Source: an uncultured Pseudomonadota bacterium (GTDB taxonomy: Bacteria > Myxococcota_A > UBA9042 > CAIXZC01). Taken from it: a stretch of DNA of 34,061 nt. A model generated the notes under the pieces. It was not told where the DNA came from, searched no databases, and was given only the letters and a program-made list of their open reading frames with translations. The DNA lies in NCBI GenBank assembly GCA_937884235.1, contig CALGBT010000815.1, positions 1 through 34,061 on the forward strand. The letters run 5' to 3'. Shown here piece after piece: positions 11,861 through 34,061 of the stretch. The position numbers and the translations under genes are program-made. The first letter of the stretch is position 1; each line of letters begins with the position of its first letter.

Positions 11861-11879
11861 GCGGCAACTGCCCGAGTTT

Positions 11880-14800
11880 CTACCACTCAACATAGACGAC
11901 ACCGTTGGCACCTTTGCCGCCCGTGGGGCGACTGCCGTTGTAGCCGCCGGCGCCACCGCCGGAGCCATGTCCTTGACCGCCTTTGCCGGACCAACTCGCA
12001 CCGCCGTTGCCAGCAGTGGGGCCGGCCCCGTCGATGAGTAGGCCGCCGGCACCGCCGCCGCCGCTATGCGAAGAGGAGCCCGCAGCCCCGCCGGCCCCGG
12101 CAGTCAACGAGGCCAGCACAGCCCCGGCCAGGTTGTCAAAATGACCGCCACTGCCGCCCGAATAGGTGCAACCGTTCTGGCCGGCCGACCCGCCCTGGCC
12201 ACCCTTTCCTGCGCAGCCGGAATTGCCGGCACCGCCACCACCGCTGCCGCCATTACCCCCACCCGAGCCATTGGTATTCCCGCCGTTGCCGCCACTGGCA
12301 CTCAAGTAGCCCCCGAAGGAAGAGGTTGCCCCCTTGCTGCCCGGCGCGTCGTTGGTGTTGGCAACACCTCCATTACCGCCACCGCCGACCGTCACGGTCA
12401 CCACGCCAGCAACGTCGTAATTGCCGTAGAGAACGTAGCCTGAACCGCCGCCGCCGTAGTGGCTGCCGGCACCACCACCACCGCCACCAACCACTACGAC
12501 CCGCACAGTGCTTACCCCGGGTGGCACGGTGAAAGTCTGAGCGCCGCCGGTGTAAGTGAAGACCTTGTTGCCGGGCTGGTACTCCACGCAAGTCCCCGTC
12601 TGGCAGACGATTCCACCATCCTGGGTGCAGGCCGTGCCATCAGCCACGGGAGTGTAGAGACAGCCGCTACCAGCCTCGCAAGAGTCGTTGGTACATTCCT
12701 GGCTATCATCGCAGGTCAGGGCCGGCCCGCCGACGCAGGCCCCCTGGCTGCACTGATCCTGGGTAGTGCAGGCATTGGCATCATCGCAAGAGGCATCATT
12801 GGCGATGAAGGTGCAGCCCGCGGCAGGACTACAGCCATCGTCGGTGCAAGGGTTGCCGTCGAGACACTCAAGGGGTTCAGAACCGACACACACGCCGTCG
12901 ACGCAAGTGTCCGTCTTGGTGCACTGATTGTCGTCGTCACAGCTACCATCAATGGCCGTGTATTCGCAGCCGTTGGCGGGGTGGCAGGTATCGAGGGTGC
13001 AAGGATTGTCGTCATCACAATCGAGGGCACCGCCCGGTACGCAAGACCCATTGTCGCAAGCGTCACCAGTGGTGCACGCGTTGAAGTCTGTGCAGACCCC
13101 GGCGGTCGGCAAAAACTCGCAGCCCACGTTGGCATCGCAGCTATCGGCGGTGCAGATGTTACCGTCGTTGCAGTTGAGTTGCCCGCCGCCGGCGCATTGC
13201 CCCAATTCGCACTTCTCGCCCACGGTGCAGGCATCGCCATCATCGCAGGGAGCAGTATTGAAAGTGTGAATGCATCCCTGAAGCGGCGTGCAAGTATCAT
13301 TGGTGCACAGATTGTCGTCGTCGCAAGAGACCGCCTGAGTACCTTTGCAGGAACCGGCGCCGCAGATGTCGGCGAGGGTGCAGAGGTTGCCATCATCGCA
13401 GTCAGCTCCGTTAGCGGTGTGCACACAACCGGACTCCGGCGAGCACGAATCGTCGGTGCAGATGTTCTGATCATCGCAACCCAACGCACCGCTCCCCTGG
13501 CACTCGCCTTGAGCGCAAGTATCAACGGGAGTACAGATATTGCCGTCATCGCAGGGAGCAGCATTGTCGGCGTGAACGCAACCACCCGCAGGGTCGCAGG
13601 CATCGCTGGTGCACGGGTTCGCATCATCACAATCAAGCCACCCCTTGCCAACGCAAAGGCCACCAGAGCACAAATCGTTGAGAGTGCACGGGTTGCCATC
13701 GTCACATTTGCCGTCGTTGGGGACGTACTGACAGCCTTTCTTGGAATCGCAGGAATCGCTGGTGCAGTTGTTCTGGTCGTCGCAGGCCACCGCGATCTGG
13801 CCCTGACACTGGCCCTGGACACACGTGTCTGCCGCCGTGCAGAGGTCCTGATCGTCGCATGGTGCGCTGTTATGGGCGTACAGACAACCGCCCTGCGGAT
13901 TACACGAATCATTGGTGCAGACATCGCCATCATCGCAGTCTACGAGCCCCTCGAAAAGGCAATCACCGCCACCGCAATGATCGCCGAGGGTACAGTCGTT
14001 ACCATCGTCGCAGGGCTCAGCATTGGGCACGAAGGTGCAACCGCTGTTGTCGTCGCAGCTATCGTCAGTGCAGCCATTGGCATCGTCGCAAACCACCGGC
14101 ACCCCGCCCCCGCATTCGCCTTCGAAACAGGCATCACCCACGGTGCAAGGGTCGCCATCATCGCAGGCGAAACCCTGGTGATCCGGCACCAGTGCACATT
14201 CGCCCGTCCCCGGGTCACATGATGCCTTGACGCAAACTCCGTCAGGCCCTTCCGGTGCGGGGCAGGTCACCACCGTTCCCGGATCCACAAAGCACTGGTA
14301 AGGCAACTTGTCGAGTTGGCAGAAGAGCGTCCCGTTGCAAAGGTCACCATCTTCCAGAACAGCACAGTCGGCGTTGTCCTGGCATTCGCAGTCCACCGCA
14401 AAACCACTGCACTCGCCCTGGCTGCACTGGTCGTTGACGGTGCAAGGGTCACCATCATCGCAGGGCCCGGCGTTGAACTCCGCAGTGCACCCGCCAAGAC
14501 CATTGCAAAGATCGTCAGTACATGGATTGTCGTCGTCGCAGACAATGGGCAACCCGGTGCAGACGCCAGCTTCGCAGTGGTCACCCACGGTACAAGAGTC
14601 ACCATCCGCACACTCACCTTCCGAGAGGACTTGATGATCGCAACCCGCCTCTCCCATGCAGGAATCCTTGGTACAGGGGTTATCGTCATTACAAGGATTG
14701 ATGTAGTCCCCCTCCACTGCATTGGGTTCGTCGACCTCGCCATCGCAATCGTCGTCGATACCGTTGCATGATTCCAATTCCGGGACCGTGGCATCACAGT

Positions 14801-15533
14801 CAGTGAGACCCGCTTCGGCACAGAACCGCATGCCTTGACAGGTACCTATTTCATTAGCCACTTCACAGCCGGTCCAGAGCGACAACTCCACGGATCTTGA
14901 GGTGCAGGGGCAGACTCCGGCATCGGCAACACACTGCATGGTGGCGATGCCGTCCACGGTCTGGGCATCAACGCATGAAAAACCCCAGGGACAATCGCTG
15001 CCTTCAGCACAAACACTACCGCAGAACGCACCTTCGTCGCCGTAGTCCACGCAAACGTCCTCGGCACCGCTGGGACTCTTGCAGCTATCGCCACCATTGC
15101 ACGGCTTGCAGAGATTCGAGACATCGGACACGCAAATATAGACCACGTCGGGGTCAGCACCCGCCACCTGCTTGCACGACCATCCCGGGGGGCAATCCTC
15201 CTGGCAAGGAACCGTGCAAACCGCCTCTCCCATGTGCTCCACACACCAGCTCGACTGGCAATCGCCATTGCCCACGCAGGGGTCCAGAAAACATCCGGTT
15301 CCCGGCTCACACTCGACAAATGGCGCGTCCGGTCCCGAATCGAAACTCAACTCCGGCTCGATATAGAGGTCGGGCTCATCAGAAGCTTCCCCTGAGGAAG
15401 CCTCGTCCGGGACCGCAGATACGTCAGTCGTCGGGGTCGCATCCGGAACGTCGGCAACAGTAATTGTTGTCCCACCATTGTTGCAGGCAAAAAACATCAG
15501 AGTTGCGGCAAACAAAAAGCCAGTATTGCGCAT
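11880..15533 (-). CDS. giant cysteine-rich repeat lipoprotein, paralog 1 (C-terminal glycine-rich domain)
   Basis: ATG with GGAGG upstream. Lipobox MFFAC-NN followed by an acidic linker. Cys-rich head ends in CNGIDDDCDGEVDE. There are 12 bipartite 51-aa repeats (CDDGNxCTxxDxCxxGxC + CDDxNxCTxDxCxxxxGC). The C-terminus VFTYTGGAQTFTVPPGV...GGGGGG is a glycine-rich domain. Total length is 1217 aa. Confidence 0.92.
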   Translation of the reverse strand: MRNTGFLFAATLMFFACNNGGTTITVADVPDATPTTDVSAVPDEASSGEASDEPDLYIEPELSFDSGPDAPFVECEPGTGCFLDPCVGNGDCQSSWCVEHMGEAVCTVPCQEDCPPGWSCKQVAGADPDVVYICVSDVSNLCKPCNGGDSCKSPSGAEDVCVDYGDEGAFCGSVCAEGSDCPWGFSCVDAQTVDGIATMQCVADAGVCPCTSRSVELSLWTGCEVANEIGTCQGMRFCAEAGLTDCDATVPELESCNGIDDDCDGEVDEPNAVEGDYINPCNDDNPCTKDSCMGEAGCDHQVLSEGECADGDSCTVGDHCEAGVCTGLPIVCDDDNPCTDDLCNGLGGCTAEFNAGPCDDGDPCTVNDQCSQGECSGFAVDCECQDNADCAVLEDGDLCNGTLFCQLDKLPYQCFVDPGTVVTCPAPEGPDGVCVKASCDPGTGECALVPDHQGFACDDGDPCTVGDACFEGECGGGVPVVCDDANGCTDDSCDDNSGCTFVPNAEPCDDGNDCTLGDHCGGGDCLFEGLVDCDDGDVCTNDSCNPQGGCLYAHNSAPCDDQDLCTAADTCVQGQCQGQIAVACDDQNNCTSDSCDSKKGCQYVPNDGKCDDGNPCTLNDLCSGGLCVGKGWLDCDDANPCTSDACDPAGGCVHADNAAPCDDGNICTPVDTCAQGECQGSGALGCDDQNICTDDSCSPESGCVHTANGADCDDGNLCTLADICGAGSCKGTQAVSCDDDNLCTNDTCTPLQGCIHTFNTAPCDDGDACTVGEKCELGQCAGGGQLNCNDGNICTADSCDANVGCEFLPTAGVCTDFNACTTGDACDNGSCVPGGALDCDDDNPCTLDTCHPANGCEYTAIDGSCDDDNQCTKTDTCVDGVCVGSEPLECLDGNPCTDDGCSPAAGCTFIANDASCDDANACTTQDQCSQGACVGGPALTCDDSQECTNDSCEAGSGCLYTPVADGTACTQDGGIVCQTGTCVEYQPGNKVFTYTGGAQTFTVPPGVSTVRVVVVGGGGGGAGSHYGGGGSGYVLYGNYDVAGVVTVTVGGGGNGGVANTNDAPGSKGATSSFGGYLSASGGNGGNTNGSGGGNGGSGGGGAGNSGCAGKGGQGGSAGQNGCTYSGGSGGHFDNLAGAVLASLTAGAGGAAGSSSHSGGGGAGGLLIDGAGPTAGNGGASWSGKGGQGHGSGGGAGGYNGSRPTGGKGANGVVYVEW
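12630..14693 (-). repeat. in-frame tandem coding repeat array, 153-nt (51-aa) period, 12 units, split by a 75-aa insert
   Basis: The first Cys of the A half-repeat falls at aa 457, 508, 559, 610, 661, 712, 763, 814, 865 and 916, exactly 51 apart. Two more units precede the insert. Confidence 0.9.
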
Positions 15534-15694
15534 GAGGTGCCTCCGTAATCGTCACGCGATAGTACAGTCCGCGAGCCATTGCTGCAAGTCAGGCACCACG
15601 CGGGCCCGGTCGATTTTTTGTGCTTCTGCCCCTGCTCCTCCCGATATAGAGGATGGAGCAATCCTGCCCCAGCGACCGCAGCAAGGAGGCATCC

Positions 15695-16252
15695 ATGATC
15701 TTTCAGTGGACCATTCTGCTACTCATTTCTCCCCTTATGATGCCGGCCATGCCGGCAGGACGACCGCCTGACCCCGGGGAACTGGTGATAACCGAGATCA
15801 TGGTGGACCCACATGCGACAAAGGACACCTACGGGGAGTACCTGGAGGTCACCAACGTCAGCGACGACCCAGTCCAACTGCTCGGTCTCATAGTCCGGGA
15901 TCACGACCGTGACTGGTGCCCGGTGACACGGCCACTGCTGGTCCCAGCCGGCCGGGCCGTGGTCTTTGCCCGCCGCTGGGAACCGTCGGCCAATGGCGGG
16001 TTCTTCCCCAGCTACCTCTGCACGGGCCATGCGCTCCACCTCAAAAACGACCGCGACAGCATCGTCCTCGACTGGTACGGGGTGGACATCGACGAGGTCA
16101 CCTATCGAGCCCGGGAGTGGCCGCTAGAACCGGGCAAAGCCATGGAACTGGACCGCTCCTGCTATGACTCGGCCATCAACGATGAACCGTCGGCGTGGGC
16201 CAGGTCACGCACCCCCATGCCCAGCGGCGACTTTGGCACACCCGGGAAATAG
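15695..16252 (+). CDS. secreted lamin-tail-domain (LTD) protein
   Basis: ATG 15695 lies after AAGGAGG. There is a hydrophobic N-terminus. LVITEIMVDPHATKDTYGEYLEVTNVSDDPVQLLGLIVRD is the characteristic LTD opening motif. Length is ~185 aa. Confidence 0.75.
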   Translation: MIFQWTILLLISPLMMPAMPAGRPPDPGELVITEIMVDPHATKDTYGEYLEVTNVSDDPVQLLGLIVRDHDRDWCPVTRPLLVPAGRAVVFARRWEPSANGGFFPSYLCTGHALHLKNDRDSIVLDWYGVDIDEVTYRAREWPLEPGKAMELDRSCYDSAINDEPSAWARSRTPMPSGDFGTPGK

Positions 16253-16281
16253 GGCACCGCCAGAAAGGCACTGCGAAAATG

Positions 16282-16310
16282 TTTGCAACCTCTACCCAGA
16301 TGAGTAGACT
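16282..16310 (+). promoter_or_regulatory. possible sigma70-type promoter upstream of the amylase gene
   Basis: TTTGCA, a 17-nt spacer, then TAGACT, about 35 nt upstream of the ATG at 16346. This is a weak sequence match only. Confidence 0.2.
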
Positions 16311-16345
16311 CGGCTTGAAAAGCGTAACTCAAAACGGAGGCACGC

Positions 16346-18730: not shown

Positions 18731-18812
18731 TGCGCTTGGCGTTTGCCAATTCCCACGCTTTGTCAGATAATCGGCACCATAGAGACCGCCGCCCATAGCA
18801 CGAGGAATCGCC

Positions 18813-21800
18813 ATGAATCGTTTCGCCCTTGCCGCAGCCCTTCTGCTCGCAACAACTCTCCTGCTGGCGTGCAGCAACCAGGGGGGCGTAACACTCCTCA
18901 AGGATGCCATGGATTCCCAACAGGGGGACGGCAAAACTGTGCTGGACATGGCGGTCGAAGAGAGCCTCAGCGACCTGCGGCACGACGCCTGGACTGAGGA
19001 CAACCGTGGCGATACTGCCGACCTCCGCGACGAGCCCAGCGACTTCGGCACACCTTGCTCCGACAACGACGACTGCCTTTCCGGGCTGTGCATCCCGCAT
19101 CGGGGTGAGCTGGTCTGCTCCCATGAATGTGTAGAAGAGTGCCCCGACGGATTCATCTGCAGTGCCATCACTTCCGGCGGCCCGGACATGTTCTTTGCCT
19201 GCATCAGCCTCTACCCGTCACTCTGCTTGCCCTGCTCGTCCAGCGACGATTGCGAGCCGGGCCCAGGCGTGCCCACGGCCTGCGTCATCTACCCGGGCGA
19301 GGGCTCCTTCTGCGCCACCCAATGCACTGAGGAGATTCTCTGCCCCGAGGGAAGCTACTGCCTCGACGTCGATACCATGGAAGGGGGCAGCGGCAACTAC
19401 TGCACCAGGAACCAGGGCCCCTGCGAGTGTACTCAGTTCGCCATTGCCACGGGCCTCAAGACGCCCTGCTCGGTGACCAACGACTTTGGCACCTGCTCCG
19501 GCAACCGGGTATGCCAGGCCGATGGTCTGACCGAATGTAATGCAGCAGTCCCCAACGAGGAGTTCTGCAACGGCGCCGACGACAACTGTGACGGCCAGGT
19601 AGACGAGGGTACCTGCGTCGATGACAACCCTTGCACCCTGGATGAATGCCAGCCCAACCAAGGCTGCATCTTCACCCCACAGGAGGGGATGGAGTGCGAC
19701 GACGGCGACCCCTGCACGGTTGCCGAGCTGTGCCTGGCCGGCATCTGCCAGGGGTCGCCGGTGACTTGCAGCGATGACAACCAGTGCACCGATGACCTCT
19801 GCAGCATCGACGGTGGCTGCTCCTTTGAGCCCAACCAGGATGCCTGTGATGACGGTGACCCGTGCACCGTTGGCGATACCTGCAAGCTGGGACTCTGCAC
19901 GAGCACACCGATTGCGTGCAACTGCACGGTCGATGCCGATTGCAAAGCCCTGGAAGACGGCGATGCCTGCAACGGCACTCTTTTCTGCGACGTCTCGCAG
20001 ATCCCATATCAATGCCAGCCCGTGCCCGGCAGCGTCGTTGACTGCCCGGCACCGGAGGGAAAGAACAAGCTCTGCATGGCCGCCTGGTGCGACCCGTCGG
20101 ACGGCAGCTGCTCGCTGGTTCCAGCCAACGGGGGAAACCCCTGTGACGACGGCAATAAGTGCACTTATGGTGAGAGCTGCAGCGACGGCGCCTGTGTTGG
20201 CGGCAAAGCCCTCAACTGCAATGACGGCGATCCCTGCACCGATGACGCCTGCCAGGCGACGACAGGCTGCACAGCCACCTTCAATGACGCCCCCTGCGAT
20301 AATGGCAACTTCTGCACCACCAATGACTTCTGCGTCGCCGGGGAATGTACCGCGGGAGAAGCGCTCAACTGCAACGACAACAACGCCTGTACCAACGATA
20401 TCTGCAACCCGGTCAAGGGCTGCCTGCACACCAACAGCAGTCAACCCTGCGACGACCTCGACCCCTGCACCGAGCAAGACTCCTGCTCCGGCGGATTCTG
20501 CCTGGGCACCGTCCCCAAGAATTGTAACGACAACAACCCCTGCACGGACGACATCTGCGTTCCCCTGGCGGGTTGCTCCTACAACAACAACAGCAATCCG
20601 TGCAGTGACGGCAATGCCTGTACGGTGGCCGACAAGTGCGTCGGTGGTTCCTGCAATCCCGGGAACACCCTTGATTGCGATGACGGCAATGTCTGCACCA
20701 ACGACTCATGCTCGCCTGCGGAAGGCTGCCAGCATGCCCCCAACAAGTCCCCCTGCGACGACAACAACTCCTGTACCTCGCAGGACCAGTGCGCTGCGGG
20801 CAAGTGCATCGGCAGTGCCGATGTTGATTGCGACGATGACAATCCCTGCACCAAGGATCTCTGCCTCGCCAATGGTGGTTGCCAACACGAGAATGTGGTG
20901 GCACCGTGTAGCGATGGCAACCCCTGTACTGCGGGGGACATTTGCGCCAACGGCGAGTGTCAACCTGGAGACTCTGTGGATTGCGACGATGGCAACGTCT
21001 GTACTGCCGATTCCTGCAGCCAGAGCAATGGGTTGTGCCTCCATTCCCCCACCCCCGGGGATTGTGACGACAACAACCCGTGTACAACGAAGGACGCCTG
21101 CGGTGGTGGCAAATGCGTCGGCACTACTCCTCCCGATTGCAACGACCAGAACGTTTGCACTACCGACTACTGCGACCCGGCCAGTGGCTGCGTTCACCTG
21201 CTCAACAGCGCACCCTGTGATGACGACAACCTTTGCACCACCAAAGACCAGTGCAACCTCGGCGAGTGCGCCGGCGGTCCAGCCCTCTCCTGCACCGACG
21301 GAAATCCCTGCACCGACGACGGCTGCAACGCGGCGACCGGCTGCACCTTCACGCCCAACACCACACCTTGCGACGATGCCAACGCATGCACTGAGGGCGA
21401 TACCTGCAAGTCCGGGTGGTGCGTAGGCGTCGCCTCCAGTTGCGACGATCTCAACCCCTGCACCGCGGACAGCTGCGACCCGGGGGTCGGTTGCCTGCAC
21501 CTGCCTGCGGCGGGTGCTTGTGACGACAACGATGCTTGCACCGGCGATGATCTCTGCGCCAATGGACTGTGCGGCAGCGGGCCCGCAGTCAACTGCAACG
21601 ACGGCAACATCTGCACTGCCGACGCCTGCGACGCCGATACCGGTTGCACGCACACACCGACGGACGGAGGGTGCGACGACGACAATGCTTGCACCGTGGG
21701 TGATTCCTGCAATGAGGGCACCTGTCAAGCCGGGGGCATAGCCCTTGACTGCGACGACAGCGAGGTCTGCACCGATGATTCCTGCGACCCTGACCTGGGC

Positions 21801-22388
21801 TGCCAGCACACCAACAACGCAGTAGCCTGTGATGACAGCAACCAGTGCACCGTGGGCGATGTCTGTGCCATTGGCGTTTGCACCGCCGGGCCAGCTACCC
21901 TCGACTGCAGTGACAACGACCCCTGCACCACCGACACCTGCGACCCGAACCTCGGGTGCCAGCACTCGGGAGGCGGCTGCCTGCAATTCAGTCACGCCTT
22001 CAGCGCCGGCCCCACCACAGGAGCCGCCTGCAACAAGTGGAACGCCTTCCGGGCCACGCTGACTGGCAACTACAGCAAGGTCACCATCAAGGGCACTTAC
22101 GACCAGGTCGGCGTCTCCTGCACCGGGGCCAGCGCCAATGCCATCTGCAACTCGCTGCGCACCAAATCGGCCGGCTCCTGGAGCTGCGGCGGGCGGACCT
22201 GGCGCACTGGGGACTGCGGCGGTGACATCGAGGTCAACGCCAATGGCGACATGTGCAATTGTCCGGGCAACGGTTACACCGTGCGACCCTGCATAGACTA
22301 CCCGGGGTCGTCAAACCCCAACTGGGGCGGAGCCCTCACAGAGACCTGCAACAGTCCAACGCAAACCCTTGAACTGATTTGCCAGTAG
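18813..22388 (+). CDS. giant cysteine-rich repeat lipoprotein, paralog 2 (C-terminal 11-Cys module instead of glycine-rich domain)
   Basis: Lipobox LLLAC-SN followed by an acidic linker. The head is colinear with paralog 1 and ends CNGADDNCDGQVDE. There are 14 bipartite ~51-aa repeats with the same insert after unit 2. The last 136 aa (CLQFSHAF...TLELICQ) are unrelated to the other two tips. Confidence 0.92.
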   Translation: MNRFALAAALLLATTLLLACSNQGGVTLLKDAMDSQQGDGKTVLDMAVEESLSDLRHDAWTEDNRGDTADLRDEPSDFGTPCSDNDDCLSGLCIPHRGELVCSHECVEECPDGFICSAITSGGPDMFFACISLYPSLCLPCSSSDDCEPGPGVPTACVIYPGEGSFCATQCTEEILCPEGSYCLDVDTMEGGSGNYCTRNQGPCECTQFAIATGLKTPCSVTNDFGTCSGNRVCQADGLTECNAAVPNEEFCNGADDNCDGQVDEGTCVDDNPCTLDECQPNQGCIFTPQEGMECDDGDPCTVAELCLAGICQGSPVTCSDDNQCTDDLCSIDGGCSFEPNQDACDDGDPCTVGDTCKLGLCTSTPIACNCTVDADCKALEDGDACNGTLFCDVSQIPYQCQPVPGSVVDCPAPEGKNKLCMAAWCDPSDGSCSLVPANGGNPCDDGNKCTYGESCSDGACVGGKALNCNDGDPCTDDACQATTGCTATFNDAPCDNGNFCTTNDFCVAGECTAGEALNCNDNNACTNDICNPVKGCLHTNSSQPCDDLDPCTEQDSCSGGFCLGTVPKNCNDNNPCTDDICVPLAGCSYNNNSNPCSDGNACTVADKCVGGSCNPGNTLDCDDGNVCTNDSCSPAEGCQHAPNKSPCDDNNSCTSQDQCAAGKCIGSADVDCDDDNPCTKDLCLANGGCQHENVVAPCSDGNPCTAGDICANGECQPGDSVDCDDGNVCTADSCSQSNGLCLHSPTPGDCDDNNPCTTKDACGGGKCVGTTPPDCNDQNVCTTDYCDPASGCVHLLNSAPCDDDNLCTTKDQCNLGECAGGPALSCTDGNPCTDDGCNAATGCTFTPNTTPCDDANACTEGDTCKSGWCVGVASSCDDLNPCTADSCDPGVGCLHLPAAGACDDNDACTGDDLCANGLCGSGPAVNCNDGNICTADACDADTGCTHTPTDGGCDDDNACTVGDSCNEGTCQAGGIALDCDDSEVCTDDSCDPDLGCQHTNNAVACDDSNQCTVGDVCAIGVCTAGPATLDCSDNDPCTTDTCDPNLGCQHSGGGCLQFSHAFSAGPTTGAACNKWNAFRATLTGNYSKVTIKGTYDQVGVSCTGASANAICNSLRTKSAGSWSCGGRTWRTGDCGGDIEVNANGDMCNCPGNGYTVRPCIDYPGSSNPNWGGALTETCNSPTQTLELICQ
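19614..21977 (+). repeat. in-frame tandem coding repeat array, ~153-nt period, 14 units, split by a 75-aa insert
   Basis: The A-unit first Cys falls at aa 444, 495, 546, 597, 648, 699, 751, 802, 853, 903, 954 and 1006. Spacing is 51 aa except three steps of 52, 50 and 52. Confidence 0.9.
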
Positions 22389-22393
22389 GGACC

Positions 22394-23275
22394 ATGGGAA
22401 CCGCCACCGGAAGTCTGCATGATACCGGCGAGTTTCGTCGCCACGGCCTGTTGGCAACGGGACTCTACCTGGTCACCATCATGGCTGTGGGCGGTGCCAT
22501 GTGGGGGTTCATTTGGAGTCATGGGGCGCAACGGCCCCAGGTGACTCTGCCTGACACCGGCTCCAGGTGGGCCGACGACACCCCGGTGATTGCCGGGACC
22601 GGTGCCGCCCTGCCACTTCTCCACCACCTTACCAGGAGTTGGCGTCAAGCGGGCGGGCAGACTATCCAGGTGGCCCCAAGCATCGGCTCTGGTGGCGGAC
22701 TCGCCGCCTTGCGGGACGGTGTTATCGACTGCGCCATCGTCTCCCGTCCTCTCACCGCCGAGGAGAGAGCCGGCCGGGTTGTCCAGCAACTGGCCATGGC
22801 CCCCATCGTCCTGGCCGCAGGAAGTAATGTCCCCATGGAGAAGATCACCCCCAGGGATCTGGTGCAACTGGTGCGTCCAGCTGCCACTTCAGACTCATCC
22901 AGCGCCGGGTTTGTCCTGCGCGAACCGGGAGACTCCGGGCAGCAGTTGCTGGCAGAGGCTCTCCCGGACCTGGCAGCAGCACTAGCAGACGCCACGGCCC
23001 ATGAGTCCCGGCCAATGGCTTTCACCGATGCGGACATGGAACGACGTCTCCTGGCTCGCAGCAACCTTATTGGGGTCTTCGACCTGGGCACCATTCGCCT
23101 CCGCTCCCTACCACTCCAGGTGCTGCCCATTGAGGGACTCTCCACAGAGCTGGTCCGCCCCTTCACCCTGGTTTGCCACGCTGAGCATCGGCTTGACGGC
23201 TTTCTCCACTACCTCAACACGACGCCCGTGCGTGAAGCGCTGCTCTCTTTTGGCTATCAGCTGGGGGAGAACTAG
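22394..23275 (+). CDS. membrane-anchored PstS-like periplasmic binding protein (PBP_like_2 type)
   Basis: N-terminal TM is LLATGLYLVTIMAVGGAMWGFIW. SIGSGGGLAALRDGVIDCAIVSRPLTAEE resembles the phosphate-binding-protein-family motif. The start is uncertain: ATG at 22394, or TTG at 22379 overlapping the paralog-2 stop. Confidence 0.65.
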   Translation: MGTATGSLHDTGEFRRHGLLATGLYLVTIMAVGGAMWGFIWSHGAQRPQVTLPDTGSRWADDTPVIAGTGAALPLLHHLTRSWRQAGGQTIQVAPSIGSGGGLAALRDGVIDCAIVSRPLTAEERAGRVVQQLAMAPIVLAAGSNVPMEKITPRDLVQLVRPAATSDSSSAGFVLREPGDSGQQLLAEALPDLAAALADATAHESRPMAFTDADMERRLLARSNLIGVFDLGTIRLRSLPLQVLPIEGLSTELVRPFTLVCHAEHRLDGFLHYLNTTPVREALLSFGYQLGEN

Positions 23276-23276
23276 C

Positions 23277-24614: not shown

Positions 24615-25245
24615 ATCGATAGTGCGCATCCTGGTAGTGGATGACCACACTATCGTGCGCCAAGGGCTGGTCGCCCTCCTCTCTGGAGTCACCGATTTTG
24701 CCGTCGTGGCCGATTGCGGCAGCGGCTTGCAGGCCGTCAGCCTGGCGGAGAAGCACCGGCCGGACATTGTGCTCCTCGATTTGAGCCTGCCGGACATGAA
24801 CGGCGTGGAGGTCATCCACGAACTGGCGGCACGCAGCCTCCCCACCCGTGTCGTCGTCCTGACCATGCACGCGAACCCCGACTACGCCAGACCGGCCTTG
24901 CGCGCAGGGGCGGCTGGATATCTGATCAAGGGCTCCGATATCGGCGATCTCGTCACCGCCATTCGCAAGGCAGTACAAGGTGAAACCCACTTGAGCCCGG
25001 TAGTCGCCAGCATGCTTGTGGATTCACCGCCATCACCCTTCAGTGACCGGCTCTCCCCGCGGGAGGAAGAAGTACTCCGCCTGGTTGCCCAGGGGAAAAC
25101 CAGTAGAGAGGTCGGTTTGCTCCTGGAGATCAGCCCGCGTACTGTGGACAACCACCGGCGCAATATCATGGAGAAGTTGGGGGTCAACGATGTTGTCAGC
25201 CTGACCAGAGCTGCAATTAAGGCTGGCCTGGTGATGCCGGAGTAG
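24604..25245 (+). CDS. NarL/FixJ-family response regulator (REC + LuxR-type HTH)
   Basis: It overlaps the kinase stop by 11 nt. The REC domain shows ILVVDDHTIVRQG...DIVLLDLSLPDMNG. The HTH is LSPREEEVLRLVAQGKTSREVGLLLEISPRTVDNHRRNIMEKLG. Confidence 0.92.
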   Translation: MTTESIVRILVVDDHTIVRQGLVALLSGVTDFAVVADCGSGLQAVSLAEKHRPDIVLLDLSLPDMNGVEVIHELAARSLPTRVVVLTMHANPDYARPALRAGAAGYLIKGSDIGDLVTAIRKAVQGETHLSPVVASMLVDSPPSPFSDRLSPREEEVLRLVAQGKTSREVGLLLEISPRTVDNHRRNIMEKLGVNDVVSLTRAAIKAGLVMPE

Positions 25246-26172: not shown

Positions 26173-26398
26173 CCTCGAGCCTCCACCCCATCCATACCGC
26201 CATGCGCACCTCACATCAAGGCGGAATGTCCCGAATCCGCTCCGGGCCAGTACTCACCGGCTAGGTAGATCTACTCACTGCAGCAATGCCGTCGCTCTGC
26301 TAGAGTACGGACAGGACGCTGGGGCCTTCGCGGTTGGCCGTTACGAGCGGCAACCGTAAGGGAGCGGGGACCGCCTTTGCGATGTTTCTAGAGGAATC

Positions 26399-29616: not shown

Positions 29617-29623
29617 TATTCCC

Positions 29624-31198
29624 CTAGTGAAGATCCTGTGTTCTGAACATCAACTCCTGGGCAAAGCGAAGACGCTCCAGTTGGTCAAGAAAGAACTGCT
29701 CCCAGGCACCGTTGCCGGCATACCACATCCCCCCCGGCTTGTCCGCAGTCAACTGGCGATAGAAGAAGAAGGAGTCATAGCTGATGCCGTACTCACCCCC
29801 CAATCCGTTGACACTAACCTCTGCAAAGGGGTTGCCCGTACAATCCAGGCCCGGATGGGCTGTGGGGAGGTAGTAGCGGTCTTCAGGCATCTTCGCCAGA
29901 GCCTCAGCAAGATGCTTGGGCTCGGCGGGCAAGGACTGGCTGGAGAAGCCGTAGAAGATGGCGCTGCCAGGTCCGTAGGACGGGGTCACCGAGTAGATCT
30001 GCCCCTGAGTTGTCGGATAGAACTTGTCCAGCTGGCCAGCTACATTCCATCCACCCTTGGCCGCGTGGGCCGCACCCATATGTGCATAGAGCAACGTCTC
30101 GTCATCCGGAATCGCTTGCTGGAACGTCCAGATCAGAATCTGCTCCCGCTCCATCATCATCTGCATCAGGTAGCTCTGGTCCCCGCCGCCCAAAGAGCCC
30201 ATCATGAAATCCTGGGAGACGAAGACCGCCCCCATCCAGAGGGAGTAGGCCAGGTACTCTACCTCTTCGCAGCTAGCCTCATCGGAGAGCGCGGCGCAGA
30301 TGGCCTCAATGTGGTCCAGCACCATCTTGTAGTAATCCTCGGCATCTTCCACGTATGCCGTCTCGAGGCCCATCATGCCGTAGCTCTGGATCTCTCGGGG
30401 GGCCGGCAGAGTATCAAGCAGCAACCCCACCGCGACATCATCGGTCATCTCGGCGGCAATAGCCGTCAACTGCTCATTGACCCAGGCCAGCCGCTGGGGC
30501 ACGTCTACCCCCACAACATCGAGGTCGTAGCCCTCCAGGACCAGCTCATGAGCTCGCTCCGGAAGCAGCCGGCGGAACATGTTCTCGCCATACATATCGG
30601 CCCCGATAGCCTGCATCGCCGCAGGATTTCCCGTGGCCAGAAAGTCCTGCAAGTCCGCAGTAGTATCCATGCCGATCTCCAGGGCCAGAACCCGCACCCC
30701 ATGGTACCGCACCAGATACTCAAAGAGGTCAGCGCTGGCTAGTCCGATCTCATTTGAACCGTGGACTTCGCCCATGAAGAAGGCCTGATGCCCCTCGAAC
30801 TCCTTGCCAAGAATCGAGAAGTCCCAGCCGTCAGCACCAGCCGCCGCACAACGCAACGGAAAGGCGTTGTTCTGCGCAAAAGTGGAAATTTCGTTGCTAG
30901 AAGTCGGTGCTGCTGTCACCGCCCCGCAAACCGCCAGTTCGGGTTGGTCGCAGAGACTGCTGGGAATCGTCACTTCGGGCTCTTCCACCAGATCCTCAAA
31001 GGGAACGACGTCCTCCCCCGCGACCTCGCCAACATTGGCGAGGTCCGCCTCCACGTAGACGTCCTGACCAAAGAGATCCGGCGCAGCCTCAACATCGTTC
31101 GTAACCTTGGAATCGCTACTGGACGAACAGCCCGCACCAAGCAGAAGAAGCGTTACCAGGAGAGAGAGGAAGTATGGTCGCAGCAAGGGAATCATCAT
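29624..31198 (-). CDS. erythromycin-esterase/ChaN/Tiki-superfamily-like lipoprotein
   Basis: Lipobox LLLGAGC-SS followed by an acidic linker. AFFMGEVHGSNEIGLASADLFEYLVRYHGVRVLALEIG resembles the GExTHGxxEF...ALE opening of erythromycin esterase-like proteins. LLYAHMGAAHAAKG resembles the second His motif. The start is ambiguous (ATG 31198 preferred, ATG 31258 possible). Confidence 0.5.
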   Translation of the reverse strand: MMIPLLRPYFLSLLVTLLLLGAGCSSSSDSKVTNDVEAAPDLFGQDVYVEADLANVGEVAGEDVVPFEDLVEEPEVTIPSSLCDQPELAVCGAVTAAPTSSNEISTFAQNNAFPLRCAAAGADGWDFSILGKEFEGHQAFFMGEVHGSNEIGLASADLFEYLVRYHGVRVLALEIGMDTTADLQDFLATGNPAAMQAIGADMYGENMFRRLLPERAHELVLEGYDLDVVGVDVPQRLAWVNEQLTAIAAEMTDDVAVGLLLDTLPAPREIQSYGMMGLETAYVEDAEDYYKMVLDHIEAICAALSDEASCEEVEYLAYSLWMGAVFVSQDFMMGSLGGGDQSYLMQMMMEREQILIWTFQQAIPDDETLLYAHMGAAHAAKGGWNVAGQLDKFYPTTQGQIYSVTPSYGPGSAIFYGFSSQSLPAEPKHLAEALAKMPEDRYYLPTAHPGLDCTGNPFAEVSVNGLGGEYGISYDSFFFYRQLTADKPGGMWYAGNGAWEQFFLDQLERLRFAQELMFRTQDLH

Positions 31199-31297
31199 GC
31201 ACCTCGTGGCATCGGGAACGGTCCGGCGACCACCTGTCGCGGTGAGCATCATACTCATTTGAGGTGATTATTCAATCGGTGGGACGCAGACTCGGAC

Positions 31298-34061
31298 TTA
31301 GTAGGTGACCTTGATCTGGCCATGCCCCATGCGGACATCAGCCGTGGTGCTGCTCGCGGTAACACCCCCCACGTAGGAGGACCCGCCTCCACCGCCGCCA
31401 CCGCCGCAGTTCTGGTGGCCGCCGCCACCGCCACCGTAGTATCCGCCGCCGCCGGAGCCAGCGCTGCCGCACACATCACCGTCAGCCTCCCCCGCTCCCT
31501 TGCCACCCTGGCCAAGTTCCCCGGCAGTGCCAACGATGTAGTCGCAGCATGCAAGCCCCGTTGCCCCGGCCGCGCCGCCGCCAGCCTGCGTCCCCGCCTT
31601 CCCCCCTCTCCCGGGGGGCTGGTTGGGAATGCTGTCTGTTCCATCCTGGCCCGAAGTGCCGCCACCGCCGCCGCCGACTCCGCCCGTCCAGCCGCCAGAG
31701 CCGAAGCTGTATCCCGCGTGCCCGCCACCGCCGCCGGCAACGATCTTGCGGTCGCTCAACGCGGTGCCGCCGACCCGCACATCCGAGCCGCCGCCACCCC
31801 AGCCTTTGGCCCAGGAACTGACGTTCTTGCCGCCACCGTTCCAGCCCCCGGCACTACCTTTGCCCCCCACATAGAGGTGCAGAATCTGGCCGGGGGTGAC
31901 CGCCAGCGTACCAGTGGCCTTGCCACCCTTGCCGCCGTCGGGTACTTCGAAGCCATTACCTCCACCCTGTGCGCCATAGGCTTCAACCACCACCGACTTG
32001 ACACAAGGCGGCACCGTCCAGTCCTGCGTTCCGCCAGTGTAATCAAAGGTAATGGAGCCGGTCTCGCAGGCATCGATACACTCACCAGCCCAGCACTCCA
32101 GATCCTGGCCACACTCCGTACCGTTTGCCACCGGCACAAACTGACAGCCAGCCCCGGGGGCGCACGCATCGTCAGTGCACCCATTGGCGTCATCGCACTC
32201 CACCGCAATCCCCGGCTGACACTGGCCCGCACCACAGATGTCGCCATCGGTGCAGGCGTCGGCATCATCACAAGGTGCGGTGTTGGGAGTGTTCACACAG
32301 CCATCGACGGGGTGGCAGGAATCCGTGGTGCAAAGCTCATTGTCGTTGCAGCTGATCCCGGCCCCACCACCACACACGCCCCCGGCACAGAATTCATTGA
32401 CGGTACAGGCATCACCGTCGTCGCAGGGGACCGTATTGGGCACGTGCACACACCCGGCAACGGCATCGCAAGAATCATCTGTACACAAGTCGTCATCGTC
32501 GCAATCCAGGCCCGGACCGGCCTTGCACATGCCCCCTCCGCAAGCGTCGGCAACGGTACAGGCATTACTGTCATCGCAGGGCGCGGTGTTGTTCAGGAAT
32601 TGGCAACCGGTGTTGGGGTGACAGCTGTCGGTGGTGCACAGGTTACCATCTTTGCACTCCAGATTGCCGCTGCTGATACAATCCCCGAGGTGACAGTGGT
32701 CACCGGTGGTGCAAACGTCGGCATCGTCACAGGGGACGCTGTTGAGCAGGTGCAGGCAACCCACCGCCGGGTCACAACTATCGGTGGTGCAGAGGTTATC
32801 GTCGTCGCACCCGGGCGCAGTACTTCCCTTGCAAACCCCGGCAACGCAAGTGTCTACCAGCGTGCAGGCATTACCATCGTCACAGGCCGCCTCCTTGGGG
32901 ACAAACTGGCAGCCAAGTTCGCTGTCGCAGCTATCGTCGGTGCAGGGATTCTCGTCGACGCATGCCGCGGCCGGCCCCGGAGCGCATTCCCCGGCCAGGC
33001 AATGGTCCCCGACGGTGCACACATCACCATCCTGGCAAGGGGCCTGATTGGGCGTGTGGACACAGCCTGTATCCGGGTCACAGCTGTCATCCGTGCAAGG
33101 GTTATCGTCAGCACAAATTGCCGCGACGCCGGCGACACACTTACCGACCTGGCAACTGTCGCCGATGGTGCAAGCATCACCGTCATCGCACGCGAATTCA
33201 TCATGGTCCGGGATCAGACTGCACCCTCCCGCGGCCTCGAGGTCGCAAATCGATTGCTGGCAAATAGCATCAATACCGGTCGGAGCCGGACACTCCACCA
33301 CCGTCTCCGGCAGCACCACACACTGATAAGGCCACTTGTCCTTGTTGCAGCCTAACGTGCCATTGCAGAGGTCTCCGTCTTCGAACTGGGCACAGTCCTC
33401 GTCTGCCTGACAGTCACATGCCACCGGCGTCCCGAAACAACTGCCGTCCCCACAATAGTCACCGACTGTGCAGGCATCCCCGTCATCGCAGGCTGAAGTG
33501 TTGTTGGTGAACTCGCAGCCGCCAAAACCGTCGCAGGCATCATCGGTGCAGGGATTGCTATCATCACAGGCCACCGGGGAACCAGCGCAGACTCCCTCTG
33601 CGCAATGGTCACCGACGGTGCAAGCATCGCCATCAATGCACTCACCCGCGCTCAGCGCCTCATGAACACAGCCGGCCTCTCCTTTGCAGAGATCAGTGGT
33701 GCAAGCATTGCCATCGTCGCAGGGGCCCACATACTGACCCTCGTGGAATGTCCCCTCGTCCACATCACCATCACAGTTGTCGTCAACCCCATTGCAGACC
33801 TCGGCTGCGGGCACCTGGGCATCGCAGTCCCCCAGGCCATCGTCGAGGCAAACCCGCTGGCCCACACAGGCGCCAAAGTCGTTGGCCCGGGAGCAGGGGG
33901 TCCACAACCCCAGAGATACCGAGGTATCGGTGCAGGGGCAGACCCCCGCATCCGCCACGCACTGGACAGTGCTTACACCGTCCACCGTAACCGTCTCCAA
34001 ACAGGAGAAACCCCATGGGCAGTCCTCGTCAACGGCACACTTCGCCCCGCAGAAACTACCC
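31298..34061 (-). CDS. giant cysteine-rich repeat lipoprotein, paralog 3 (5' end beyond window; C-terminal glycine-rich domain)
   Basis: The frame stays open to nt 34061: upstream of the ORF-track TTG it reads GSFCGAKCAVDEDCPWGFSCLETVTVDG, colinear with paralog 1 GAFCGSVCAEGSDCPWGFSCVDAQTVDG. It carries CNGVDDNCDGDVDE, 9 bipartite 51-aa repeats and the same insert. The C-terminus is ITFDYTGGTQDWTVPP...AYGAQGGG...GGGGSDVRVGGTALSDRKIVAGGGGG. Confidence 0.92.
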   Translation of the reverse strand, partial: GSFCGAKCAVDEDCPWGFSCLETVTVDGVSTVQCVADAGVCPCTDTSVSLGLWTPCSRANDFGACVGQRVCLDDGLGDCDAQVPAAEVCNGVDDNCDGDVDEGTFHEGQYVGPCDDGNACTTDLCKGEAGCVHEALSAGECIDGDACTVGDHCAEGVCAGSPVACDDSNPCTDDACDGFGGCEFTNNTSACDDGDACTVGDYCGDGSCFGTPVACDCQADEDCAQFEDGDLCNGTLGCNKDKWPYQCVVLPETVVECPAPTGIDAICQQSICDLEAAGGCSLIPDHDEFACDDGDACTIGDSCQVGKCVAGVAAICADDNPCTDDSCDPDTGCVHTPNQAPCQDGDVCTVGDHCLAGECAPGPAAACVDENPCTDDSCDSELGCQFVPKEAACDDGNACTLVDTCVAGVCKGSTAPGCDDDNLCTTDSCDPAVGCLHLLNSVPCDDADVCTTGDHCHLGDCISSGNLECKDGNLCTTDSCHPNTGCQFLNNTAPCDDSNACTVADACGGGMCKAGPGLDCDDDDLCTDDSCDAVAGCVHVPNTVPCDDGDACTVNEFCAGGVCGGGAGISCNDNELCTTDSCHPVDGCVNTPNTAPCDDADACTDGDICGAGQCQPGIAVECDDANGCTDDACAPGAGCQFVPVANGTECGQDLECWAGECIDACETGSITFDYTGGTQDWTVPPCVKSVVVEAYGAQGGGNGFEVPDGGKGGKATGTLAVTPGQILHLYVGGKGSAGGWNGGGKNVSSWAKGWGGGGSDVRVGGTALSDRKIVAGGGGGHAGYSFGSGGWTGGVGGGGGGTSGQDGTDSIPNQPPGRGGKAGTQAGGGAAGATGLACCDYIVGTAGELGQGGKGAGEADGDVCGSAGSGGGGYYGGGGGGHQNCGGGGGGGGSSYVGGVTASSTTADVRMGHGQIKVTY
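32114..33721 (-). repeat. in-frame tandem coding repeat array, 153-nt (51-aa) period, 9 units, split by a 75-aa insert
   Basis: The A-unit first Cys falls at ORF-track aa 271, 322, 373, 424, 475, 526 and 577, exactly 51 apart. Two more units precede the insert. Confidence 0.9.

Follow-up and report, generated by a model that had tools for sequence, protein, structure and literature searches.

Three genes within a 34,061-nt stretch of DNA from an uncultured bacterium (the whole stretch is hereafter the window) are real, old and colinear paralogues, designated A, B and C, that encode large Cys-rich proteins. Their common order of parts is a lipobox signal, an acidic tether, a base domain, two stalk units, a knob, a further 7–12 units and a C-terminal tip. 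We favor, with a probability of about 55%, an interpretation of A, B and C as lipid-anchored, extracytoplasmic display proteins, in which a chassis carries a swappable tip as payload, forming a surface display or adhesin platform.

Genes and protein architecture

The open reading frames lie at 11880–15533 (minus strand, A), 18813–22388 (plus strand, B) and from 31298 to the window end (minus strand, C). These coordinates, and the colinearity of the three, agree with the original prediction, as judged from translations and alignment. The frame of C remains open through the window end, placing its N-terminus beyond the window as anticipated; the called gene (31298..34000) stops short of this only because the call begins at the first TTG. 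The combined length is 9,994 nt, against the ~10 kb first estimated. The parts of each protein are as follows.

Protein A
15483..15533, minus strand: signal peptide and lipobox (MFFAC, Cys17), from the translation, with an Arg-containing n-region and a hydrophobic h-region
15315..15482, minus strand: tether, aa 18–73, acidic and proline-rich by composition
14718..15314, minus strand: base domain, aa 74–272, no family model, AF2 model
14394..14717, minus strand: stalk units 1–2, aa 273–380, four Dicty_CTDC half-repeats, modelled
14166..14393, minus strand: knob, aa 381–456, 76 aa, 10 Cys, conserved among the paralogues
12636..14165, minus strand: main stalk, ten 51-aa units, aa 457–966, 80 Cys, PF00526 E=1.3e-57, strict 25/26-aa spacing
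11880..12635, minus strand: short cap and glycine-rich tip, aa 967–1217, and stop, PF21722 Gly_rich_2

Protein B
18813..18872, plus strand: signal peptide and lipobox (LLAC, Cys20), from the translation
18873..19052, plus strand: tether, aa 21–80, acidic by composition
19053..19598, plus strand: base domain, aa 81–262, 42% identity to A with cysteines in register
19599..19913, plus strand: stalk units 1–2, aa 263–367, by repeat spacing
19914..20141, plus strand: knob, aa 368–443, 10 Cys, conserved among the paralogues
20142..21977, plus strand: main stalk, twelve 51-aa units, aa 444–1055, 96 Cys, PF00526 E=2.4e-67
21978..22388, plus strand: orphan Cys-rich tip, aa 1056–1191, 11 Cys, and stop, no family match

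Protein C
33746..34061, minus strand: base domain, C-terminal half only, 62% identity to A and 53% to B
33422..33745, minus strand: stalk units 1–2, by repeat spacing
33191..33421, minus strand: knob, 77 aa, conserved among the paralogues
32120..33190, minus strand: main stalk, seven 51-aa units, PF00526 E=3.1e-53
31298..32119, minus strand: cap, glycine-rich tip and stop, PF12810 ALK_LTK_GRD

In a three-way protein alignment, A shows 45% identity to B and 53% to C, with cysteines in register, and the non-repeat N-terminal 390 aa of A and B align by BLASTP at E=2e-109 with 47% identity. At the DNA level, identity between the genes is patchy (63–74%), and the longest common exact words are 15–17 nt. 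No DNA tandem repeats were detected within 11800–34061, leading us to reject recent tandem amplification. Five contigs carry A and three carry B. A 200-kb JGI contig from another sample encodes a 1216-aa relative of A from the same 90%-identity cluster, followed, in the gene order of the window, by an LTD protein, an amylase, a Dicty_CTDC protein at the position of B, a PBP-like gene and a kinase. Since the A/B arrangement recurs in this independent assembly, and given the diverged DNA and the several contigs, assembly duplication, named beforehand as an outcome that would refute the original claim, was rejected. The genes had already been described as divergent, not recent, duplicates.

Both complete copies carry the predicted lipobox. 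The N-termini read MRNTGFLFAATLMFFAC in A and MNRFALAAALLLATTLLLAC in B, and place the lipobox Cys at residues 17 and 20, respectively. By inspection, both appear to be lipoprotein (signal peptidase II) signals, with an n-region, an h-region and a lipobox Cys within ~25 residues. The FFAC lipobox of A is atypical, with Phe at −3 and −2; lipobox signals occur in nearly all relatives, and almost all of these are L-x-[AG]-C. The MYXO-CTERM sorting tag (TIGR03901) gave no NCBIfam match in A, B or C. It is a true match in two CTDC proteins (P0076 and P0126), and base-domain-only relatives have a MYXO-CTERM-like tail below threshold (14.8 bits versus 20 in P0011). The tether is weakly conserved among the paralogues (30% identity), and its earlier description as D/E/P-rich suits A (13 D/E, 7 P and no K/R in 55 aa) better than B (15 D/E in 60 aa, but a single P and 5 K/R).

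The expected Cys-rich N-terminal domain, of ~200 aa (~190 aa in the original prediction) and ending in the motif CNGxDDxCDGxVDE, was located at aa 74–272 of A and aa 81–262 of B. It had been called a head; because it adjoins the lipid anchor, it is the base of the molecule, which leaves the C-terminal tip at the far end. The base domain of A comprises three Cys-rich beta modules and terminates in CNGIDDDCDGEVDE. Modules 1 and 2 are an internal duplication (score 81 versus 35±7 in shuffles). Its AF2 model is confident (pLDDT 91.5, pTM 0.82), with no significant fold match in the PDB or among BFVD viral models, and no Pfam or NCBIfam model matches this domain family. The suggested likeness to ‘putative metal-binding motif’ proteins stays below threshold: PF11617 Cu-binding_MopE reached 15.5 bits on the A base domain, under its cut-off of 27 (E=0.021), over profile positions 14–30 only.

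Each stalk unit has a length of exactly 51 aa (25+26) and contains 8 Cys, the density first noted; it is made of two Dicty_CTDC half-repeats. The predicted series of two units, insert, 7–12 units and tip was recovered, with counts of 2+10 in A, 2+12 in B and 2+7 in C. The spacing over the insert is 99–100 aa in all three, and the insert itself, here the knob, measures 76–77 aa with 10 Cys (75 aa in the original prediction). PF00526 Dicty_CTDC scores 191.6 bits in A (12 stretches), 222.7 in B (13) and 177.6 in C (9), against a cut-off of 27. The repeat had been likened to the Myxococcus cysteine-rich repeat. Searches of NCBIfam and Pfam found neither TIGR02232, the model of that repeat, nor PF13948 DUF4215 in A, B or C at E<=0.01, so this membership was rejected in favor of PF00526 (E 1e-53 to 1e-67). 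The knob, with 47–59% identity among A, B and C, has no Pfam family, and is modelled as a compact region with short helices. It occupies the same place (aa ~355–396) in 50 of 64 family representatives.

An AF2 model of the stalk (A aa 270–611) has a pLDDT of 93.4 and contains short beta-hairpins only; its pTM of 0.55 means that the overall straightness is not fixed by the model. A Foldseek search of the PDB with this model gave Entamoeba Gal/GalNAc lectin heavy-chain entries as the sole significant matches (E 2.5e-5 to 1.8e-4, probability up to 0.99), while phmmer searches of PDB sequences, the Entamoeba chain among them, with full-length A and B gave no match at E<=1. Leaving aside the lipobox Cys, the cysteines number 138 in A and 158 in B, even totals, which complete disulfide pairing demands. 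The modelled hairpins and the Entamoeba lectin-arm match support the proposal that the stalk forms a disulfide-stapled rod.

The tips differ between copies, and two of them belong to described glycine-rich domain families. Tip A matches PF21722 Gly_rich_2 (E=2.7e-15, 57.4 bits versus a cut-off of 24.3) over profile positions 3–225 of 226, together with the PHROG tail-category families phrog_863 (E=6.6e-17) and phrog_21412. Tip C matches PF12810 ALK_LTK_GRD (E=1.6e-14, 54.9 bits versus a cut-off of 24.5). Searched alone against PDB sequences, tip C yielded low-complexity Gly runs only; ALK was reached by a profile search, in which four ALK-type tips combined matched the ALK ectodomain (7lrz, 7mzy, 7nwz and 7n00, E 1e-6 to 2e-6) over the whole domain (profile positions 12–231). 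These matches indicate homology between tip C and the glycine-rich ligand-binding domain of ALK/LTK. BLASTP gave no alignment between tips A and C (E=5.8), which would make them related at most at the level of the Pfam family. Tip B had no match in Pfam, PHROGs or the PDB, and one relative only in a word-indexed protein database (93 aa, 74% identity).

Family size and tip exchange

A, B and C belong to a large family, as yet unnamed, whose members come from uncultured Myxococcota of lakes and the sea. The ABC-F protein encoded in the window gave genome matches of about 50% identity that were scattered over many phyla, and so did not help to place the window taxonomically. All relatives found carry the source name ‘hypothetical protein’, and a search of the literature on Pfam-named glycine-rich domains, bacterial polyglycine-II domains and Myxococcota cysteine-rich lipoproteins returned nothing on this family. 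The whole architecture had not been assigned to a described family, and its coverage by a curated family had been named as a refuting outcome. No curated family covers it as a whole: NCBIfam gave no match, and Pfam covers the stalk repeat and two tips. A profile search with the base domain retrieved 1743 representatives at E<=1e-30. Without exception, the tether would keep this domain near the membrane anchor, and the same domain is also found beneath MopE-motif, TSP3, EGF and FG-GAP stalks. Single MAGs contain at least 13 base-domain genes, of which 8–9 have CTDC stalks, often in tandem.

Among 63 chassis-bearing representatives, the tips include FGE-sulfatase (6), Laminin_G_3 (6), SBBP (4), Lcl_C (4), ALK_LTK_GRD (3) and Gly_rich_2 (2), with further cases of beta-helix/NosD, RCC1, Endostatin, lactonase propeller, PKD, LDL-B, LTD, CBM96 and BNR/Sortilin. 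Over the N-terminal 400 aa, every one of the 2079 representative pairs can be aligned (median identity 56%), and just 28 of them have a tip in common. Partners in tip are mostly not the nearest N-terminal relatives, their ranks running from 1 to 58 of 64. Sequence comparison thus indicates a chassis that is conserved across the family and a tip that is exchanged among unrelated, mostly binding-type domains (lectin-like, beta-propeller, beta-helix and glycine-rich TNF-like), which agrees, together with the copy number, with the diversifying surface-protein family originally suggested. Elsewhere in the family, FGE-sulfatase, lactonase and beta-helix tips might have catalytic activity, so that a binding role need not extend to all members. 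DUF4215-like CCGNG...EECDDGN modules were also seen in the tips of some relatives.

Thousands of large metagenome proteins are led by this unnamed ~200-aa base domain, which has a confident model and no PDB fold match. Naming it and solving its structure would annotate many ‘hypothetical’ Myxococcota surface proteins.

Proposed function and alternatives

In the proposed display mechanism, the N-terminal cysteine would be acylated and the protein sorted to the outer membrane, with periplasmic oxidation closing ~69 (A) to 79 (B) disulfides. An extracellular location is favored by the lipobox signals of nearly all relatives, by the MYXO-CTERM tags of P0076 and P0126, and by the place of Dicty_CTDC among the N-terminal modules of Myxococcota teneurin-like lipoproteins (bioRxiv 10.1101/2025.11.11.687626). 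Against it stands the need to move a folded, disulfide-bonded rod of 1200 aa through the outer membrane. The base domain may attach the rod to a partner in the envelope, or have a part in export to the surface. The stalk would then hold the tip tens of nanometres off the cell, a rough figure that takes each 25-aa module as 1.5–2 nm long, by analogy with EGF or TNFR-type arrays. There, the tip would bind its ligand, which could belong to prey, particles, polymers or kin, and we infer that recognition of surfaces, prey or particles is its most likely role. Tips A and C may act as protein- or surface-binding glycine-rich domains, by comparison with ALK/LTK and phage tail fibres. A battery of paralogues with varied tips and stalk lengths would give each cell a broad recognition repertoire. 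The host is probably predatory or particle-attached, as judged from its phylum label.

Taken further, the same observations could tentatively be read as a genome-wide ‘plug-and-play’ recognition system, with at least 12 paralogues per cell. It would combine a base of unseen fold with a eukaryote-like disulfide rod, whose module type is otherwise found in Amoebozoa, in the matrix proteins of Dictyostelium and the adhesin arm of Entamoeba. Lectins, propellers and ALK-type glycine-rich domains would be exchanged by recombination where stalk and tip meet, the base would be a handle for surface export of folded lipoproteins, and both the rod and the ALK-type domain would be traces of genes passed between bacteria and eukaryotes. 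We consider this joint reading speculative.

Other functions were weighed against surface display. Were the CTDC rods building blocks of an extracellular matrix or sheath, the role of the tips would be to join polysaccharide or other components of the matrix to one another, in place of recognizing foreign targets. The stalk repeat is that of a Dictyostelium ECM repeat family, ECM-type modules (TSP3, EGF and LamG) occur on sister proteins with the same base domain, and in both strains the interval from A to B includes genes for an LTD protein and for a GH13 amylase that has a glycogen/starch-binding module. However, the lipid anchor and the single distal payload per molecule favor display over a network, the extreme tip diversity and at least 13 paralogues per genome are unexpected for a bulk structural protein, and self-association lacks support; a structural role of this kind appears improbable. 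We find it similarly hard to credit a scaffold for nutrient capture or enzyme display, whose stalk would present substrate-binding or catalytic modules while TonB-dependent receptors import polymers. The amylase adjoins B, a TonB-dependent receptor is encoded at 26399–28597 in the window, and some family tips have folds of an enzyme type (FGE-sulfatase, lactonase propeller, beta-helix/NosD and CBM96). Yet none of the three tips in the window resembles an enzyme, FGE-sulfatase and beta-propeller domains often serve purely in binding as well, and family members in other genomes have no conserved synteny with such genes; no conserved partner genes, including an export gene, were found around them.

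A conserved N-terminus with a hypervariable C-terminus, encoded by tandem paralogues, is also expected of polymorphic toxins, in which an N-terminal trafficking part and filament would deliver variable C-terminal toxins accompanied by immunity genes, and Myxococcota do use lipoprotein polymorphic toxins of a teneurin-like kind (bioRxiv 10.1101/2025.11.11.687626). No toxin family was found in the tips of the 63 representatives or in A, B and C, and no small conserved gene follows the tips. The neighbors in the window are a convergent gene after A, the PBP-like gene after B and, after C, a gene for a 544-aa lipoprotein for which an exact look-up found no record. Toxin delivery was rejected on these two absences and seems very improbable. 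Equally remote is metal binding, periplasmic or at the surface, in which Cys and Asp would bind metal, such as copper in the manner of MopE, in place of forming disulfides or binding Ca2+. The repeats are Asp-rich and the base-domain motif resembles PF11617, but this motif occurs once per protein in A, B and C and scores below threshold, and both the even number of Cys and the hairpins of the confident model are consistent with disulfides. MopE-type binding was therefore rejected; copper binding by MopE itself is not known to rest on a PF11617-type motif.

Comparison with known systems

Dictyostelium CTDC-repeat proteins are components of the slime sheath and stalk-tube matrix. Like A, B and C (PF00526, 178–223 bits versus a cut-off of 27), they are secreted, Cys-rich and built from tandem ~24-aa modules. 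A, B and C differ from them in the strict 51-aa double unit, in being bacterial lipoproteins, and in having a base domain, a knob after unit 2 and an exchangeable tip. No solved structure had been reported for the repeat as of 2021 (PMC8078820), and the present work adds a confident model of it, linking it to the newly solved arm of an Entamoeba adhesin. In Entamoeba HgL, this elongated arm is rigidified via interdomain disulphides (PMC12948311). The HgL arm (PDB 9gjc and others), on a surface adhesin, and the stalk are alike in their disulfide-stapled hairpin modules of ~20–25 residues. The match is significant (Foldseek E 2.5e-5, probability 0.99) but has a TM of 0.1–0.2 and ~16% identity, so the models suggest a common type of module without establishing homology. 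HgL, a type I membrane protein, has its sugar-binding site in a separate light chain, and none of its parts corresponds to the base domain, knob or C-terminal payload described here.

Proteins of the MopE-type PF11617 class are connected to the family through sister proteins with the same base domain, in which 5–25 full PF11617 repeats form the stalk. In A, B and C, by contrast, the motif is single and below threshold, and the stalk is of another repeat family. Myxococcota teneurin-like lipoproteins, which have Dicty_CTDC among their N-terminal modules, share with A, B and C the phylum, the SPII lipoprotein route and this display module, but enclose a toxin in a YD-shell (bioRxiv 10.1101/2025.11.11.687626). 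Pfam scans of A, B and C found no YD, NHL or FN-plug domains and no toxin-like tip.

The glycine-rich domain of ALK is part of a receptor tyrosine kinase and binds ALKAL cytokines. Its counterpart in tip C, matched through PF12810 and over the whole domain of the solved ectodomain, is bacterial and sits at the distal end of a stalk. Such tips would thereby place an ALK/LTK ligand-binding domain in a bacterial display setting. The Gly_rich_2 family (PF21722), matched by tip A, includes relatives from phage tail fibres.

In design logic, the proposed platform resembles the mosaic adhesive trimer (MAT) fibres of Bdellovibrio bacteriovorus (PMC10769870), which also combine many paralogues in a predator-lineage genome, a conserved fibre chassis, diverse adhesive tips and surface display for the recognition of varied targets. 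MAT fibres are trimers by name; the present models are of single chains of disulfide-rich hairpins, in proteins with a predicted N-terminal lipid anchor. The chassis has no Pfam, PHROG or PDB match of the MAT kind, and the likeness is one of functional logic. A stiff, modular, disulfide-stapled rod with a 51-aa increment could also be a possible spacer in protein engineering. The chassis-plus-payload layout, in parallel with phage tail fibres and the MAT fibres, offers a testable model for diversifying recognition in uncultured bacteria.

Three colinear genes for predicted lipoproteins and their surroundings

Three long open reading frames encode giant cysteine-rich proteins, predicted lipoproteins designated A, B and C. 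Their positions and colinearity, as put forward in the original prediction, were borne out by the translations and a three-way alignment.

11880-15533, minus strand: A, translation of 1217 aa
18813-22388, plus strand: B, translation of 1191 aa
31298 to the window end, minus strand: C, translation of >920 aa, running off the window before its N-terminus

Cysteine accounts for 11-13% of the translations. A shares 45% identity with B and 53% with C, with cysteines in register, and colinearity extends from the first residue that all three share through the whole stalk; the N-terminal non-repeat 390 aa of A and B align with E=2e-109. Identity is 42-62% across the base domain, repeat units, insert and stalk, and collapses at the cap and C-terminal tip. 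This domain order and conservation pattern are established for the three genes.

An assembly artefact, which would have undone the prediction, was ruled out, as was recent duplication. Tandem Repeats Finder detected no tandem repeats in 11800-34061, DNA identity between the genes is just 63-74% and confined to patches, and the longest exact word common to them is ≤17 nt. A is present on five contigs and B on three, with close A variants of 1215-1216 aa in JGI data and an exact B match on an ENA scaffold from the Alinen Mustajarvi lake metagenome. A relative of 1216 aa, within the 90%-identity cluster of A, lies on a 200-kb JGI contig obtained from a different sample, where it is followed in the same gene order by the Lamin-Tail-Domain (LTD) protein, the amylase, a Dicty_CTDC protein at the position of B, the PBP-like protein and the kinase. 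In this related strain the protein at the B position has 1090 aa, 101 fewer than the 1191 aa of B, a difference that two 51-aa units lost or gained would produce, suggesting that stalk length varies between strains.

Several neighbouring genes were also annotated. At 4789-7422 (plus strand) lies an 877-aa lipoprotein with a lipobox (LSLAC), an acidic/proline tether and two internally repeated glycine-rich halves; it has the lipobox and acidic tether of A and B, lacks the base domain and CTDC stalk, matches no Pfam or PHROG family, and has an 878-aa counterpart at the same place in the 200-kb contig. Between A and B (15653-18730, plus strand) are the small LTD protein and a GH13 alpha-amylase with an AMPK1_CBM glycogen/starch-binding module. 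The related strain keeps this arrangement, with a VapBC pair (PIN and VapB) and a PALP enzyme inserted between the two genes; LTD also serves as the tip in one family member. Directly after B (22379-25245, plus strand) follow a PBP-like periplasmic binding protein, whose ORF overlaps the B stop codon, a HisKA_3 histidine kinase and a LuxR-type response regulator. The related strain has the PBP-like gene and then the kinase in the same order, the stretch compared ending within the kinase. A sigma-70-like promoter match (TTGCCA, 17 nt, GATAAT; 10/12) is found at 18743-18771 (plus strand), 42 nt upstream of the B start codon, such matches being no more numerous in the region than in shuffled sequence. 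Downstream of C by 40 nt and on the same strand lies a predicted 544-aa lipoprotein (29624-31258, minus strand; LLGAGCSSS), which may share a transcript with C. Neither Pfam nor PHROG gave a match to it, and no record with its exact sequence turned up, perhaps owing to a different start call.

Architecture of the stalk, base domain and tips

The spacing of the CT..D.C motif alternates between 25 and 26 residues, giving an exact 51-aa unit with eight cysteines. The units number 2+10 in A, 2+12 in B and 2+7 in C, and each stalk is interrupted after unit 2 by one gap of 99-100 aa containing a conserved insert, or knob, of 76-77 aa with ten cysteines and no Pfam family. Excluding the lipobox cysteine, A contains 138 cysteines and B 158, the even counts that full disulfide pairing requires. 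The stalk belongs to PF00526 Dicty_CTDC (E 1e-53 to 1e-67), which fixes the repeat family. NCBIfam returned no match for A, B or C, and the likeness to the Myxococcus cysteine-rich repeat proposed earlier was not upheld.

Residues 270-611 of A (two units, the insert and three units) were modelled from a 66-sequence alignment. The model (pLDDT 93.4) is a chain of short beta-hairpins, with the insert as a compact region with short helices; its pTM of 0.55 is typical of an elongated module chain and does not fix overall straightness. [quoted passage not shown] The cysteine-rich part of that chain is described as a long arm built from pseudo-domains of ~20 residues and stiffened by disulphides between them (PMC12948311); TNFR-type and EGF arrays rank next, with non-significant E-values. 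Given the confident hairpin model and the likeness to a rigidified arm, the predicted disulfide-stapled rod is well supported as the structural type of the stalk.

The N-terminal cysteine-rich domain of ~200 aa belongs to no family. Its closing motif, CNGxDDxCDGxVDE, had been likened to the putative metal-binding motif; the motif is present, but scores 15.5 bits against a PF11617 cut-off of 27. Modules 1 and 2 of the domain form an internal duplication (score 81, compared with 35±7 for shuffles). An AlphaFold2 model from a 34-sequence alignment is mostly beta and confident (pLDDT 91.5, pTM 0.82), and in Foldseek searches neither the PDB (best E 1.4, TM<0.2) nor the viral models contained a similar fold. 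Since the predicted lipid anchor is N-terminal, this domain, originally termed the head, is the membrane-proximal base, and the C-terminal tip is the distal end. The base domain is always tethered near the membrane anchor through an acidic linker. It stands alone in three relatives (P0009, P0011 and P0018), with an acidic linker and then a Gly-Cys/transmembrane/Arg tail on its C-terminal side, and therefore anchoring of the base domain is possible at either terminus. The signal peptide of P0009 and P0011 is of the ordinary kind that lacks a lipobox, and P0018 is an N-terminal fragment. The tails resemble MYXO-CTERM with scores below the model threshold; a genuine MYXO-CTERM tag is found in two other CTDC proteins.

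The tips of A and C were identified by Pfam as PF21722 Gly_rich_2 and PF12810 ALK_LTK_GRD, respectively, and show no BLASTP alignment to each other. A profile of four C-type tips matches the solved ALK ectodomain over the full domain (E~1e-6), and tip A also matches PHROGs in the phage tail category. Tip B (136 aa, 11 cysteines) has no match in Pfam, PHROGs or the PDB, and one 93-aa relative in a word-indexed database.

Family expansion and exchange of tips

An exhaustive search of 1.84 billion representatives with the base-domain profile returned 7907 proteins at E≤1e-3 and 1743 at E≤1e-30, some top scores being inflated by repeated MopE motifs. The base domain was found solely in MAGs that bear a Myxococcales, Deltaproteobacteria, Myxococcota or Bradymonadia label and were sampled in lakes (LaPlata, Alinen, Tanganyika), the Red Sea, the Black Sea and comparable places, with no cultured organism among the full-length matches. 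The same chassis (base domain, two 51-aa units, knob and n units) occurs in 64 of the 149 best representatives, and in 50 of the 64 the position of the insert (aa ~355-396) is shared as well; the others have MopE-motif stalks (39) or other architectures (46). In relatives' loci the base domain also precedes MopE, TSP type 3, EGF/cbEGF, FG-GAP and PKD arrays.

Base-domain genes number at least 13 in each of two MAGs (8-9 with CTDC stalks) and at least 10 and 9 in two others, these being lower bounds from the loci examined. They often lie in tandem or back to back (loci L001, L002, L004, L005, L006 and L008), with CTDC, MopE and EGF stalk types mixed within single clusters, and the three-gene cluster of the window is typical of the lineage. 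Locus L001 gives an example.

5564-9001: base-domain gene
9701-13606: base-domain gene
13726-17529: base-domain gene

In 63 chassis-bearing representatives, the region after the last stalk unit spans 124-1349 aa. The tip domains comprise FGE-sulfatase, Laminin_G_3, SBBP propellers, Lcl_C, beta-helix/NosD, ALK_LTK_GRD, Gly_rich_2, RCC1, Endostatin-like, lactonase propellers, PKD, LDL-receptor B, LTD, CBM96 and BNR/Sortilin, with no toxin families. A connector, C-x-G-K-(E/D)-C-G-x-D-G-C-G-G-x-C-G-x-C, recurs in the tips of many representatives (e.g. P0190, P0209 and P0217), joining the stalk to tip domains or one tip domain to another; A, B and C lack it.

The N-terminal 400 aa align in 2079/2079 pairs (median identity 56%), but only 28 pairs share a tip, and tip-sharing partners are usually not mutual closest N-terminal relatives. 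For example, the tips of representatives P0214 and P0234 are 62% identical, with an N-terminal rank of 58/64. Family size, expansion and tip exchange are directly observed, and this decoupling of tip sharing from N-terminal kinship indicates domain shuffling at the distal end. The many paralogues per MAG and the unrelated tips on a conserved chassis support, and extend, the suggestion of a diversifying surface-protein family.

Proposed function and comparison with known systems

We propose that the signal-peptide cysteine would be acylated, the protein sorted to the outer membrane and exposed, and its cysteines oxidised in the periplasm. At 1.5-2 nm per 25-aa module, our own estimate from EGF or TNFR arrays, the rod would hold the tip tens of nanometres off the cell, where it may bind a ligand. 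Paralogues differing in tip and stalk length could then give one cell a broad recognition repertoire. The MYXO-CTERM-tagged CTDC proteins make a surface location more likely.

That the CTDC proteins instead serve as extracellular matrix material is suggested by the repeat, which is a Dictyostelium matrix repeat, and the abundance of ECM-type modules in sister proteins; we consider this unlikely, as the lipid anchor, the single payload per molecule and the dozen paralogues with different tips are better suited to display. A role in capturing nutrients or displaying enzymes is about equally improbable: some family tips resemble enzymes, and the window has an amylase and a TonB-dependent receptor close by, but synteny is not conserved elsewhere and none of the tips of A, B and C is enzyme-like. 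Variable C-termini would also fit polymorphic toxins, for which neither toxin domains nor immunity-like neighbours were found, making this reading highly improbable. Metal binding, with a single sub-threshold motif as its basis, has a similarly slight chance.

Some elements of the system proposed here, variable recognition tips displayed on a conserved rod, have precedents: the repeat (Dicty_CTDC), the glycine-rich domains, the MopE-like motif and the general concept of variable tips on a fibre chassis. Four features are described neither by the curated families nor by the literature found: a base domain that forms a large family and whose fold has no match, a chassis of fixed layout, expansion and exchange of tips on this scale within an uncultured lineage of Myxococcota, and the apparent tie, through a confident structural model, between the Dicty_CTDC repeat and the Entamoeba adhesin arm. 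The N-terminal display modules listed for teneurin-like lipoproteins of Myxococcota include Dicty_CTDC, consistent with a surface location. Despite having no sequence or fold relation to A, B or C, the mosaic adhesive trimer fibres of Bdellovibrio (PMC10769870) offer the closest functional parallel.
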